Assembly: GCA_965205505.1 (NCBI GenBank)
Contig: CBDBHB010000009.1
Span: forward strand, 1,312,001-1,376,000
Length of the DNA: 64,000 nt
From: Acidobacteriota bacterium
GTDB lineage: Bacteria > Acidobacteriota > UBA890 > WLXD01
Reading direction: 5' to 3'
Below the pieces are notes generated by a model. That model saw only the letters and a program-made list of their open reading frames with translations. It did no database searches and was not told the origin of the DNA. Position 1 is the first letter of the stretch. The number at the start of each line of letters is the position of its first letter. Positions 12,854 through 27,556 of this stretch are shown here, piece after piece. The translations under genes and the position numbers were made by a program.

Positions 12854-13513
12854 ATGCGCCCGCCTCGAGTTGCCGTTACCTTCGCCGTCGCCGCCATCGC
12901 CATCGCTGTTTTCGCTCTCACTGTGACCTCCGCGCCGGCGCAGGTAGGCATCAACCAGAGCCTGCTCAACCCGAACCTGGCCACCGAGCAGGAGCTCGCC
13001 GCGGTGCCGCACGTTGGTGTCGACGGCGCCGCGACCATCATCGGCGGAAGACCTTGGGTGAGCGTCGCAGCGCTCGACACGGCGATCGGCGGCGGGCTGA
13101 GCGACGAGCAGCGCGATGACGTCTACTCGCGTCTCTGGCTGCCAATCAACCTGAACGACGTGACCGACGCCGAGATTCAGCTGATTCCCGGGGTCGGCCC
13201 CCGTATCGCGCACGAGTTCGAAGAGTCCCGGCCGTATGCGGCGCTGCCGCAGTTTCGTCGAGAGATCGGCAAGTATGTCGACGACGACGAGGTCGCACGC
13301 CTCGAGCAGTACGTCTTCGTGCCGCTAGACCTGAACTCGGCCTCCGCGGAGCAGCTCGCAACGATTCCGGGAATTGGTCCGCGAATGATCCACGAGTTCG
13401 AGGAGTACCGTCCCTACGTGGCGATCGAGCAGTTTCGTCGGGAGATCGGTAAGTACGTCGACGACGACGAGGTGGCGCGCTTCGAGCGCTACGTGGTCGT
13501 CGAAGGCCACTAG
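12854..13513 (+). CDS. Exported helix-hairpin-helix (ComEA-like) repeat protein
   Basis: Signal peptide; three LNxA/HhH units (IPGVGPR, IPGIGPR); two near-identical ~60-aa modules. The stop TAG lies in the MITE-end CTAG. Confidence 0.75.
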   Translation: MRPPRVAVTFAVAAIAIAVFALTVTSAPAQVGINQSLLNPNLATEQELAAVPHVGVDGAATIIGGRPWVSVAALDTAIGGGLSDEQRDDVYSRLWLPINLNDVTDAEIQLIPGVGPRIAHEFEESRPYAALPQFRREIGKYVDDDEVARLEQYVFVPLDLNSASAEQLATIPGIGPRMIHEFEEYRPYVAIEQFRREIGKYVDDDEVARFERYVVVEGH

Positions 13514-14066
13514 TGGCCTGTAACAGATGATCGTTGCGTATCGTGGTGGCGAAATGGGTCCGGATGCCAGGCGCGACGACGAGACGATGTTTGCCCATCT
13601 TGGAGGAGGAGCAACGCCGCAGACGGGCCGATTTCGCAGCCATCCTGCGGACAGATGGGCAGTTGCGGGCGATATCGGCGTTGCGCCTCGTCGACGATGC
13701 CCCGGCAGGTCGTGGTGGAAGTGTGATGGGTCTGGTTACGCCGCCAAGGGCGCAGATCCAAGGCGCCGCGTCGCCGGCGATGCCCGTGCGCATCGTCTAG
13801 GAGCGGCAACGCCGGAGACGCGCCGTTGGCGGCGTAACCCGTAGGGCATAGGGCAAGTGGGAGTCACGGGCGATGGCGGCGTCTCTCCTCCTCGACGATG
13901 GCTCCAACATCGCCTCGTCGTCGATCCTTGCCCTAGCCCGTGAGTCCCACTTGCCAGACCCACCACACTTCCATCACGGCCTGCTAGCATCGCCTTCCTC
14001 GCCGCGCCTTGATCTCACCCGCAAATCCCATCTGCGATAGGCAACGATCATCTGCTACAGGCCACT
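13510..14066. mobile_element. MITE-like structured repeat, copy 1 (contains a nested element; right end interrupted by IS110)
   Basis: TIRs CTAGTGGCCTGTAACAGATGATCGTTGC ... GCAACGATCATCTGCTACAGGCCACT|AG; near-identical to the reverse complement of 27279-27556 apart from the ~285-bp insert. Confidence 0.85.
13702..13987. repeat. Nested second structured repeat/MITE with 31-bp inverted arms
   Basis: 13705-13735 versus 13954-13984 (28/31 complementary), ending in CTAG. Inner stems 13734-13747/13826-13839 and 13852-13871/13936-13955. Absent from copy 2. Confidence 0.8.
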
Positions 14067-14080
14067 TCTATGAGAAGGCC

Positions 14081-14326
14081 TAGTTCGGTCAAGGGCAATG
14101 TGGTGCCCAGCGAAGAATCGATCTGCACGCCATGCTCCTATTCGCACTCTGGTGGACGAGGATTCAGGTCGTCCGGTGCATTCTGGGGTCCGTCCCGATT
14201 CGAGGCGCTGCAATCTAGCTGCCGAGCTCGAAGCTCGTAGTGACCTTCGCAGTCGCCCGGACCGGGCGGTCAGATCGATAACCGTTGGGTCGCGTCGCCC
14301 TACCGACCTCCTGGTTGCGGGTTAGT
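14081..14326 (-). ncRNA. Putative bridge RNA/seekRNA in the 3' non-coding region of the IS1111-type element
   Basis: ~245-nt non-coding region downstream of the transposase. Stem-internal loop-hairpin carries AGGTCACTA (target AGGCCACTA) and CTAG; a second loop carries ATAGGAG (donor ATAGAAG). Boundaries uncertain. Confidence 0.6.
14087..14092 (-). promoter_or_regulatory. Outward-facing -35 (TTGACC) for a circle-junction promoter
   Basis: TTGACC-16 nt-TAGAAG at the IS right end, the arrangement known for IS1111-group junction promoters. Confidence 0.45.
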
Positions 14327-15373
14327 TCATGCTGCTGAAACCTCTACAGGTGCGCGCAACGGTTCGTACTCGTCTCCACTCAGCCACAGTCGGTGCAGCA
14401 CAACGGCGAGCTTACGGGCGACAGCAACTGCTGCCTTTTTGTTGCCATGAGGACCACCGCGTCCGGCCAGCTTGAGCCCCCAGCGTCTGAGCTCAGTATC
14501 GGGCCCGAAGGGGCCCAGGATGTAATGCGCCGAGCCCACCAACAGGCGTCGGAGCATTTTGTCGCCCGCCTTGGTTATTCGTAGCGCAGGGTCCTTGTCC
14601 CCCGACTGCCGTTTCTTCGGTCTCAGTCCCAGGTACGGGCCCACGGCTCTGGAGGTATTGAACCGCTCCGGCTCCTCGAGCGTCAGCACATACGCCAGTG
14701 CGGTCAGAGCTCCGACCCCGGCCACTTGCTGGAGCTGCTGTGTCTCCGGGTATCGCCCCTGGCACAGCTGCGCGATCTGACGCTCGTATTGCTGGATGTT
14801 GCCCGTCAGCATGGCGATCGTTTCAAGCACCGGCTCGAGCGCTCCCTTGAGCCGCTCCGGTATGTGCTCTGGCGCGGTGCGCGCGAACGCCGGCGTCGAG
14901 CACCTGGGAATACGACAACCGGCCGACTTGACCGCACCACGCACATGGCTCACCAACTGCGTGCGGCTCTTTACCAGAGCATCTCGGCTCCGAATCACGG
15001 CTAGATCCGCTCGCGCTTGTCTGCCTCGATGCTGCACCGTCTTAAGCAGCTTTGGGTCCATTCTGCCCACTCGTGCCAGGTGCTCGGCATCCAACCGGTC
15101 GGTCTTGTCGTGCTCGCCATAGATCAGCTTCAGCCGCCTCGGGTTAGCCACCAGCACCTCATGACCCAGTTGCTTCAACTGCTCACTCATCCACGGCGAG
15201 TGCGTTCCAACCTCCAGCACTACTCGAGCGGGCTCCTCGCACCCGAACCGCCTCGCCAGCCCCTCCGGGCTCGTCCTCACCCGCCCTTCCTCCATCACCC
15301 TGCCCTTACTGTCGAGCACGCACATACGGCTGTACCGGTCGCTTACGTCCAGTCCAATCGTTACACTCCTCAT
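14327..15373 (-). CDS. IS110-family transposase/recombinase
   Basis: RuvC-like DEDD residues (IGLDVS, VLEVG, KTDRLDA) and C-terminal Tnp domain with RQSG serine; KKAAVAVARKLA. Confidence 0.95.
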   Translation of the reverse strand: MRSVTIGLDVSDRYSRMCVLDSKGRVMEEGRVRTSPEGLARRFGCEEPARVVLEVGTHSPWMSEQLKQLGHEVLVANPRRLKLIYGEHDKTDRLDAEHLARVGRMDPKLLKTVQHRGRQARADLAVIRSRDALVKSRTQLVSHVRGAVKSAGCRIPRCSTPAFARTAPEHIPERLKGALEPVLETIAMLTGNIQQYERQIAQLCQGRYPETQQLQQVAGVGALTALAYVLTLEEPERFNTSRAVGPYLGLRPKKRQSGDKDPALRITKAGDKMLRRLLVGSAHYILGPFGPDTELRRWGLKLAGRGGPHGNKKAAVAVARKLAVVLHRLWLSGDEYEPLRAPVEVSAA

Positions 15374-15535
15374 CGGCCAACCTCCTTGGGCTTCGAGCCC
15401 GTTACGTTTGAAGAAACGTTTGCAGAGCCGTCAGGCTACTGCGTTCAGGAGGTTGGCCTTCTCATCTCATCTAGAGCTTGCCCCCATCTCGACCCAGCAA
15501 TATGCAACGAACCTCTGTTACAGGACACTAGCTCG

Positions 15536-16015
15536 ATGGTCCGACCGGCTCCTGCAGGTGGCGCCGGGATCACGAACGGCGTTGCCACGGCTGGCGGGCT
15601 TCGTCGTGGTGTGCTCGCGATCCTCCTGTTCGGCAGCATCGGGGTGCTCATCGAGCTGTTGCTGATAGGGCATACGGAGGACTGGTGGCAGATACTTCCG
15701 CTGGCCTTGCTCGGTGGCGTCATCGTCGTCGCCACGGCTGCTTGGTTTGCTTCCAGTGGCGCCGTGCTGTTGACGTTGCGCGTGCTGATGTGGGCTTGCG
15801 TGCTGAGCGGCGCGACGGGCCAGTGGCTGCACTATTCAGGCAACGCCGAGTTCGAACGGGAGATGTATCCGAACATTGCCGGGGTGGAGCTGCTGCGGGA
15901 GTCGATGAGCGGCGCCACCCCGGTGCTGGCCCCCGGAACGATGACCGTGATCGGTCTGCTGGGCCTGGTGTTCTCCTGGCGGCACCCCTCCTCGAAAGCT
16001 GGAGTTGAACCATGA
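15536..16015 (+). CDS. Hypothetical membrane protein (~4 TM)
   Basis: Hydrophobic segments, ELLLIGHTE and GATPVLAPG; overlaps the next start (ATGA). Confidence 0.65.
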   Translation: MVRPAPAGGAGITNGVATAGGLRRGVLAILLFGSIGVLIELLLIGHTEDWWQILPLALLGGVIVVATAAWFASSGAVLLTLRVLMWACVLSGATGQWLHYSGNAEFEREMYPNIAGVELLRESMSGATPVLAPGTMTVIGLLGLVFSWRHPSSKAGVEP

Positions 16016-27278: not shown

Positions 27279-27556
27279 CTAGTGGCCTGTAACAGATGAT
27301 CGTTGCATATCGCAGATGGGATTTGCGGGTGAGATCAAGGCGCGGGGAGGAGGGCGATGCAGTGGGCATCGTCGACGAGGCGCAACGCCGATATCGCCCG
27401 CAACTGCCCATCTGTCCGGAGGATGGCGGCGAAATCGGCCCGTCTGCGGCGTTGCTCCTCCTCCAAGATGGGCAAACATCGTCTCGTCGTCGCGCCTGGC
27501 ATCCGGACCCATTTCGCCACCACGATACGCAACGATCATCTGTTAGAGGCCACTAG
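27279..27556. mobile_element. MITE-like structured repeat, copy 2 (uninterrupted, 278 bp)
   Basis: CTAG-bounded ~28-bp TIRs; inverted relative to copy 1; lies between convergent genes and supplies the SDR stop codon. Confidence 0.85.

Follow-up and report, generated by a model that had tools for sequence, protein, structure and literature searches.

What decides that an insertion sequence (IS) comes to rest, to the base, at the outer tip of another mobile element? The question is raised by a 1406-bp IS1111-group element with one long open reading frame (ORF), located at 14067-15472 on the minus strand of a 64,000-nucleotide stretch of an Acidobacteriota genome (assembly GCA_965205505.1, contig CBDBHB010000009.1, positions 1,312,001 to 1,376,000), which is called the window here and to which positions refer unless a contig is named. 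The element interrupts the end of a MITE (miniature inverted-repeat transposable element). It is very probably an RNA-guided member of the IS1111 group, one of 27 copies in its genome, that works by the mechanism proposed below. Its family features, the site specificity of the 27 copies, and the covariation of the RNA loop with the flanking DNA, of the stems with each other and of one donor segment with the right end (RE) of the element were established by computation.

Insertion site and genomic copies

Deletion of 14067-15472 joins ...CAGGCCACT, which ends at 14066, to the AG at 15473-15474 and gives AGGCCACTAG, the outer tip of the MITE, of which an intact copy stands at 27547-27556. An earlier reading of this DNA, referred to as the original prediction, had stated that excision restores this MITE end, and the junction letters are as quoted there; the five further intact sites that it placed in the window (13504, 13510 on the minus strand, 27273, 27279 on the minus strand and 27547) are all present, and a site with one mismatch, AGGACACTAG, lies at 15522. 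The core dinucleotide, AG in the orientation of the IS and CT on the plus strand of the window, is found at both junctions (14065-14066 and 15471-15472), so the element boundary can be placed two bases either way.

The source genome (G000; 5.98 Mb, nine contigs, 64% G+C) contains 33 BLAST pieces of the element, 27 of which are full length and 98.7-100% identical. In the plus orientation of the window these copies are preceded by AGGCCACT in 26 cases and by AGGTCACT in one, and followed by AG in 25 and by AA in one, while in the remaining copy AG comes after a 5-nt duplicate of the IS end; tabulated over all copies, the bases next to the element are thus nearly constant, in keeping with the specificity claimed earlier. 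All 27 copies have the same orientation relative to the site, no duplication extends beyond the shared core dinucleotide, and the right flanks vary past the ten-base site. The left flanks comprise 12 ends of one MITE family, nine ends of similar repeats and six unrelated sequences. Empty ten-base sites occur 109 times in the genome, compared with about 13 expected from base composition, and most of them sit at both tips of MITEs, while the full palindromic site AGGCCACTAGTGGCCT is found at three places. In the copy at C9:2703637-2702236, the element is separated from the site's AG by a 5-nt tandem repeat of its left-end bases. The tetranucleotide CTAG is strongly under-represented in the genome (5,853 observed against about 19,700 expected from base composition), yet the IS site and the flanks of the MITE both centre on it.

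The 348-aa reading frame of the transposase is kept in 10 of the 27 copies and broken in 17. A 4-nt deletion is shared by 12 copies and a 1-nt deletion by five, one copy having both, and one further copy is broken at another place; the lesions correspond to window positions 15105-15108 and 14964. The copies form 26 haplotypes over nine variable columns in a mosaic pattern, and the shared deletions may owe their spread to amplification with trans-supplied transposase, to gene conversion, or to both. The 12 copies with the 4-nt deletion were considered as proof that a defective lineage was amplified in trans, which was rejected, as the markers are mosaic among copies and gene conversion could equally have spread the deletion.

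The interrupted MITE

The MITE usually measures 268 bp, further lengths being about 346, 448 and 542 bp, and is present in roughly 70 chromosomal copies. Its terminal inverted repeats finish in ...GCAACGATCATCTGTTACAGGCCAC and are flanked by C-TA-G on each side. Duplication of TA at CTAG is a property of IS630-type elements, and the flank pattern of the MITE would fit such an IS630-like duplication. With the repeat ending in this way and C-TA-G following, the IS site takes in the final bases of the MITE repeat together with the adjacent TA-G.

All four other genomes of the genus carry the MITE, the three well-assembled ones with 52-64 matches, and at the level of the order it was detected in 18 of 26 genomes. 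The transposase, at E <= 1e-40, was found in three of these 26 genomes, namely G000, G006 (68%, broken) and G025 (35%). The distribution of the MITE, set against an IS found among these 26 genomes in G000 alone, apart from two distant relatives, indicates that the MITE is the older and more widespread element. The original prediction regarded the MITE as a safe landing pad. As a description the landing pad is supported, 21 of the 27 insertions being at MITE-type ends of an older repeat, while its safety, or any benefit of inserting into MITEs, may be supposed.

Directly past the IS, at 15475-15531, a sibling MITE subfamily is represented by a solo end (...GCAACGAACCTCTGTTACAGGACACTAG), which is unoccupied; its tip is one base off the IS site, and none of the 87 sites of this kind in the genome is occupied. 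On the other side, a 219-aa ORF at 12854-13513 on the plus strand contains two internal repeats (...RPY..L/IxQFRREIGKYVDDDEVAR...) and terminates in ...GAAGGCCACTAG, its stop codon TAG lying inside the palindromic site at the left tip of the MITE (13504-13519).

Transposase and ends of the element

The transposase carries an N-terminal DEDD RuvC-like domain (PF01548, E 1.1e-17) and a C-terminal IS110-type domain (PF02371, E 5.6e-17), and scores 206.9 bits against the NCBIfam model NF033542 'IS110 family RNA-guided transposase', which has a cut-off of 140. Matches to proteins of solved structure are weak (ISCro4, E 4.6e-09; IS621, E 4.5e-08, C-terminal half), and among plasmid-borne relatives identity reaches 36% at most. 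The translation includes GLRPKKRQSG, which fits the motif GL-P----S(t)G.

In IS orientation, the left end (LE) reads AG-ATGAG (7 nt, AGATGAG, 15472-15466) followed by ATGAGAAGGCC, and the right end reads GGCCTTCTCAT followed by the 3 nt AGA (14069-14067); with 7 nt and 3 nt between the 11-bp repeats and the ends, the inverted repeats are therefore subterminal. An A-to-T change in the right repeat (CTCAT to CTCTT, at the equivalent of window 14071) was observed in six of the 27 copies, at different sites. The non-coding sequence measures 260 nt 3' of the gene (14067-14326) versus 99 nt 5' of it (15374-15472). A downstream non-coding region, subterminal repeats, a transposase of 330-350 aa and the motif GL-P----S(t)G are named for the IS1111 group in the accessible part of PMC11187229, and subterminal inverted repeats of 7-17 bp in that of PMC11208160. 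Judged by its sequence, the element at 14067-15472 agrees with the IS1111 type in every family feature tested.

A conserved RNA scaffold in the 3' non-coding region

Relatives were collected from 401 sampled genomes of the phylum, 20 of which had matches at E <= 1e-60; together with L031 (43%) they provided 29 homologue loci. Both subterminal repeats were recognized by pattern in 22 of the 29 loci and in the window copy, and these 23 loci gave 18 distinct guide pairs after five loci with duplicate guide pairs had been collapsed. The seven loci left out of the covariation analysis, L063, L070 and L075 (short contigs), L071, L073, L033 (split) and L034 (32% identity), were cut by a contig end, split or missed by the repeat pattern; L033 was treated separately. 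The distinct relatives are 43-58% identical in transposase protein. The ends of the retained loci have 6-8 nt (mostly 7) before the left repeat, 3 nt after the right repeat and the core AG. In three loci (L087, L074 and L084) the core is AA instead of AG, and these carry AA in both the 3' guide of the target loop and the donor guide, a coordinated change of DNA ends and RNA.

Read 5' to 3', the shared scaffold starts with GGGCGACUGCG, a variable stretch, a variable hairpin and a second variable stretch finishing in the core, continues with AU(U/G)GCAGCGCC, GGACCCCA.., and AUGCAC, a small hairpin and GUGCG, and ends with (A/G)AU(G/A)GAAGC, followed near the terminus by CUUGACA ahead of the right repeat. 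The minus strand of the window has the corresponding order GGCGACUGC, GA-AGGUCACUA, hairpin, GCAG-CUAG-AUU and GCAGCGCC; CUAG adjoins the stem strand AUUGCAG directly, as in the relatives, and all the non-coding strings and coordinates of the original prediction (guide, hairpin, CTAG and ATAGGAG) proved correct. The sequence of the target loop does not vary among the 27 copies, and the loop content ranges from 32 to 60 nt among relatives.

The 18 distinct sequences were aligned with MAFFT (alignment A1) and folded with RNAalifold, which returned three helices with 18 pairs. Pairing was found in 95.1% of the 324 cells compared with 84.4% in shuffled alignments, and changes on both sides, i.e. 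compensatory changes, in 10 of the 18 pairs compared with 4.9 in shuffles, neither observed value being reached by any of 500 shuffles. When the partners were slid by 1-3 columns as a control, 24-47% of cells were paired. Helix 1, which closes the target loop, has nine pairs, six of them with changes on both sides, and at one pair of helix 3 a U-G in 15 of the 18 rows is compatible with the transposase-sense strand only. An outer stem (CCCGGU/AUCGGG) and a closing stem (CGCC/GGCG), seen by eye here and in several relatives, were not counted because the MAFFT columns are one base out of register between rows.

Covariation of the target loop with the flanks

Among the relatives, the bases that follow GACUGCG are the reverse complement of the core plus the right flank, and the stretch ahead of AU(U/G)GCAG equals the left flank plus the core. 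With the core excluded, the longest exact run between the 5' guide and the reverse complement of the right flank averaged 5.94 in cognate and 3.30 in non-cognate combinations, and in a fixed register the 3' guide shared 4.67 of 7 positions with the cognate left flank versus 1.84 with non-cognate ones. For each guide, none of 20,000 permutations of the 18 distinct pairs reached the observed value, figures that overstate independence since the rows are kin and mostly represent single insertions; the outcome was unchanged without row L065 (unpublished genome).

In the window element, AGGUCACUA pairs, through one U-G wobble among its pairs, with the top strand of the target in IS orientation, T-AG-TGGCCT, in which the core is bordered by 1 nt of left flank and 6 nt of right flank, whereas the left-flank match is limited to 2+2 nt and the more distal left flanks differ among copies. 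In IS orientation, AGGUCACUA thus belongs to the core plus right flank, CUAG to the left flank plus core, and AUAGGAG to the RE plus core. The original prediction had given the sequences of these sides correctly, but its left and right were those of the plus strand of the window, which is antisense to the transposase and shows the core AG of the IS as CT. According to the accessible part of PMC11187229, in IS1111 seekRNAs the match to the top strand stands on the 5' side of the one to the bottom strand, and both overlap in the target; the predicted order here, with AGGUCACUA (14246-14238) 5' of CUAG (14218-14215) and an overlap in the target, agrees by sequence.

The closest relative, in G006 (68% aa identity), has the same scaffold and register, and its guide CGGACUCUA matches its own, different flank at 9/9 positions, while its 3' guide reads CGAGU-AG against the flank AGAGT-AG. 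This relative (C1:3908161-3911885; loci L036 and L033; 63-68% aa) occurs as two pieces about 2.7 kb apart, so something has apparently been inserted in its transposase; it is otherwise complete in its ends, guide RNA and flanks.

Natural specificity at the guide U

The use of sites within the genome provides a further view of the target guide (Table 1). The base facing the U of the guide is G, a wobble, in the common site and A in AGGTCACTAG.

Table 1. Use of the cognate ten-base site and of its one-mismatch variants in the source genome
Site	Occupied	Empty
Cognate AGGCCACTAG	25 (including the copy with the 5-nt end repeat)	109
AGGTCACTAG	1	2
AGGCCACTAA	1	7
AGGACACTAG, tips of the sibling MITE subfamily	0	87
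AGGGCACTAG	0	6
All 30 one-mismatch variants pooled	2	337

Sites with G or A opposite the guide U were used in 26 of 137 cases and sites with T or C in 0 of 93 (Fisher p 6e-7), the latter including the 87 sibling-MITE ends with T; the cognate site differs from all one-mismatch sites with Fisher p 7e-13. The use of sites fits the pairing rules of the guide's U. The claim of the original prediction that this loop is the target guide is therefore borne out by the covariation in 18 elements, by the 9/9 match of the G006 relative and by site use.

Donor guides

The segment after GUGCG copies the right end of its own element plus the core, perfectly over 7 nt in 16 of the 18 elements; the A or G three bases from the RE agrees with the donor guide in 18 of 18, and two listed core-AA elements have AA in the donor guide. 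AUAGGAG of the window element differs by one base from ATAGA-AG, a difference that permits a G-T wobble. The register is kept in the family, so the donor match noticed in the original prediction is real and homologous, and AUAGGAG as the putative RE-side donor guide is confirmed by family covariation.

On the LE side, a CCCA(U/C)C segment ahead of AUGCAC complements the first left-end bases in several relatives (L077, L076, L078, L085, L068 and L079) and varies with the left end in L068, L085 and L079. No such complementarity was found in the window element, in the G006 relative, which has the same mismatch, or in L081. When the non-coding regions were searched for exact reverse complements of the core plus left end, matches recurred about 42-44 nt ahead of the RE-side guide in four of the 18 elements, the remaining ones being scattered. 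A recurring CUCA(U/C)C after the small hairpin was also considered as LE-side guide and dropped as inconsistent. CCCCAGA is thus a weak candidate for the LE-side donor guide, and the original prediction, which had found no convincing left donor guide, still holds after the family comparison. The donor-matching bases border a separate hairpin (14180-14143) and would apparently lie in a multi-branch loop, not a simple internal loop.

Junction promoter and sequencing runs

TTGAC begins 25-26 nt from the RE in all 18 elements, so in a circle the junction-spanning hexamer, made of the last two right-end bases, the core and the first two left-end bases, would lie 17-18 nt downstream. Junction promoters (Pjunc) are described for IS1111/IS110 elements in the accessible part of PMC12288879. 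Near-identical copies of the element were present in 20 run rows from 10 studies among the matches listed, and two assemblies of RNA libraries (X16 and X17, one study) contain most of the element.

Proposed mechanism and alternative explanations

In the proposed mechanism, the 348-aa DEDD transposase would act with an RNA from the 260-nt region 3' of its gene, which would fold so that a stem closes an internal loop. Within this loop the 5' side (AGGUCACUA) would pair with the top strand of the core and right flank and the 3' side (CUAG) with the bottom strand of the left flank and core, both guides specifying AGGCCA-CT-AG on the plus strand of the window, i.e. the MITE inverted-repeat end and the flanking TA-G, and recombination would take place at the core dinucleotide. 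The multi-branch part of the RNA, with AUAGGAG matching the element's own right end and core, would hold the circular donor, and the -35 box in the right end would make a promoter only in the excised circle. We infer that the RNA is produced and bound, that a circle is the intermediate and that its junction acts as a promoter.

A more tentative and rather doubtful extension is that in this sub-clade the RNA supplies three of the four guides, both for the target and the RE-side one for the donor, and the protein reads the left end via the subterminal repeat, which is proposed because in this element and its closest relative the left end is mismatched by the homologous segment of the RNA. Guide position 4, a U, may in addition be a wobble that admits G and A and excludes T and C, and this one base would decide which MITE subfamily (134 versus 87 ends) can be colonised.

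Several observations weigh against RNA guidance of this element. Besides the kinship of the compared rows, the window element is among the weakest of them in the covariation analysis, with a run of 4 for the 5' guide and 2/7 for the 3' guide, low exact-match scores that result from the U-G position and from a left-flank guide of two bases plus core. The complementarity of CCCCAGA to the left end ATGAG is poor, the transposase gene is broken in 17 of the 27 copies, a scan of 13400-15700 against Rfam at E <= 1 gave no match, and a simple scan found no sigma-70-type promoter in the integrated copy. The RNA-library contigs show no start, end or strand of a transcript and could stem from DNA carry-over, and no joint of the IS ends was detected in four runs, all of them contigs, which drop rare forms; as all four runs are contigs, neither the missing circle junction nor the cover in RNA libraries counts as evidence.

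How the element came to match the MITE tip is a question beside the mechanism, and the view that the match is non-adaptive falls only a little short of an even chance. The element would then insert wherever the ten-base site occurs, the resident MITE would have multiplied that site, and the 'safe landing pad' would be a by-product. Six of the 27 insertions lack a MITE-like flank, nine more are at other ends resembling terminal inverted repeats, the common part is 8-10 bases, and the occurrence of the MITE in all four other members of the genus and in 18 of the 26 genomes from the order, with the IS in G000, resembles a recent arrival at a site that already existed. However, relatives and published IS1111/IS110 members repeatedly target repeats such as repetitive extragenic palindromic (REP) sequences, transposon ends and attC, as far as the available text of PMC11187229 and PMC12288879 goes, which suggests selection for multicopy, mostly intergenic sites. 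The imperfect U-G match of the guide to an abundant site would fit a recent shift to the MITE and the lack of selection alike.

Two other explanations concern the evidence for RNA guidance. That many of the 27 copies derive from segmental duplication, assembly redundancy or homologous exchange, so that the flank statistics overcount, is unlikely. The copies C6:11751 and C6:191362 do share a 40-nt left flank (on the right-end side of the element) with different right flanks, C6:424494 and C6:512432 share the right flank with different left flanks, and the 26 haplotypes over nine variable columns are mosaic; yet coincidence is expected where left flanks are repeat ends, the copies have 27 distinct flank combinations, their right flanks alone falling into at least 24 different sequences over 40 nt, and exchange between copies alters flank pairings but cannot create a conserved ten-base junction. 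The pairs with a shared flank may reflect exchange of IS copies or repeated flanking elements. Far less probable still, to the point of being barely credible, is a protein that itself reads a partly palindromic site (AGGCCACTAGTGGCCT or its half), with the RNA-like matches being incidental. It could appeal to the palindromic form of the full site at three places in the genome, to the many recombinases that read inverted half-sites and to the fact that the RNA is known here from sequence alone, but most used sites are non-palindromic beyond CTAG and their right flanks vary, transposases 43-68% identical occur at unrelated sites that each match their own loop, and a single base between two MITE subfamilies decides use as the guide base predicts. 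RNA guidance accordingly stays the preferred reading of the locus, whose features are compiled in Table 2.

Table 2. Coordinates of the element, its predicted guide RNA and its target in the window
Feature	Position	Strand	Basis
Insertion sequence, 1406 bp	14067..15472	-	27 full-length copies with identical ends and differing flanks
Transposase, 348 aa, DEDD RuvC-like and IS110-type C-terminal domains	14327..15373	-	ORF, Pfam, NCBIfam
Left subterminal inverted repeat ATGAGAAGGCC	15455..15465	-	Same repeat and spacing in related elements
Right subterminal inverted repeat GGCCTTCTCAT	14070..14080	-	Same repeat and spacing in related elements
Conserved guide-RNA module (candidate bridge RNA or long seekRNA), 146 nt	14124..14269	-	Alignment A1, consensus fold
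5' strand of the target-loop closing stem, GGGCGACUGC	14249..14258	-	Helix 1, pairs with 14204-14211
Predicted 5' target guide AGGUCACUA	14238..14246	-	Covariation, G006 relative, site use
Variable hairpin CGAGCU-UCG-AGCUCG within the target loop	14223..14237	-	Helix 2
Predicted 3' target guide CUAG	14215..14218	-	Equals the last two left-flank bases plus core
3' strand of the closing stem, GCAGCGCC	14204..14211	-	Consensus fold, pair counts
Candidate LE-side donor guide CCCCAGA	14182..14188	-	Homologous to CCCAUC of relatives
Putative RE-side donor guide AUAGGAG	14135..14141	-	Equals RE end plus core ATAGA-AG, 6/7
TTGACC, -35-like hexamer directed outward from the right end	14087..14092	-	Kept in relatives
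Target: 549-bp MITE variant, outer tip ...CTGCTACAGGCCAC; final AG of the site now at 15473-15474	13511..14066	+	

Significance and comparison with known systems

RNA-guided IS110/IS1111 recombinases are under development as programmable DNA-insertion tools, and this genome comes near to a natural specificity experiment, with 27 insertions set against 109 perfect and 337 one-mismatch sites that are unused, from which the mismatch and wobble tolerance of an IS1111-type guide can be estimated in the genome itself. The scaffold common to 18 distinct elements could be used for annotating such RNAs, for which Rfam gave no match. The locus also represents a mobile element that has settled on the tips of an older one, whereby most insertions are kept outside genes and the MITEs are split from their flanks. 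RNA guidance in IS1111 (since 2024), insertion into repeats or transposon ends, and junction promoters have already been published; the covariation-defined family scaffold, the natural read-out of mismatch and wobble, and the MITE tip as target are what this analysis adds.

The insertion sequences IS4321 and IS5075, reportedly described by Partridge and Hall in 2003, are said to enter the terminal inverted repeats of other transposable elements in a single orientation, with subterminal repeats 7 and 3 bp from their ends and with the 38-bp end of plasmid-borne Tn21-family transposons as their target. They would thus be alike in targeting terminal inverted repeats, whereas the target here is the tip of a chromosomal MITE plus TA-G.

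ISEc11, ISPa11, ISKpn4 and ISPst6 (Siddiquee et al. 2024, PMC11187229) share, in the available text, the long downstream non-coding region, the subterminal repeats, the transposase of 330-350 aa, the motif GL-P----S(t)G and two overlapping target matches with the present element. In contrast to what is given there, the target here is a MITE tip, the left-flank match comprises two bases plus core, and the assignment is sequence-based.

ISPpu9 and ISPpu10 from Pseudomonas putida, as far as they are covered by the accessible text of PMC12288879 and 10.64898/2026.03.19.712850, likewise have a multicopy intergenic repeat as target and an invariant AG core, form circular intermediates and include defective or modular copies that need transposase in trans. 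They differ in belonging to the IS110 group without subterminal repeats and in targeting REP sequences, and circles of ISPpu9 are reported without a stronger promoter.

The bridge RNA of IS621 (IS110 group; Durrant et al. 2024, PMC11208160; 8wt6) is, in the portion of that work available, likewise bispecific, with the sides of the target loop on opposite strands around a 2-nt core and with another part of this RNA reading the donor. Different from the present element, the IS621 RNA lies upstream of the gene in the left end, whereas here it would lie downstream in the right end with the order of matches reversed; long subterminal repeats are present here, and the protein similarity is weak (E 4.5e-08 over the C-terminal half). 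A target loop of the IS621 type, closed by a stem and with guides on both sides, was found in the present RNA, and a second simple internal donor loop holding both half guides was not. Multi-loop donor binding is ascribed to many IS1111 orthologues in the accessible part of PMC11208160, and the layout of the donor-matching bases here fits that description.

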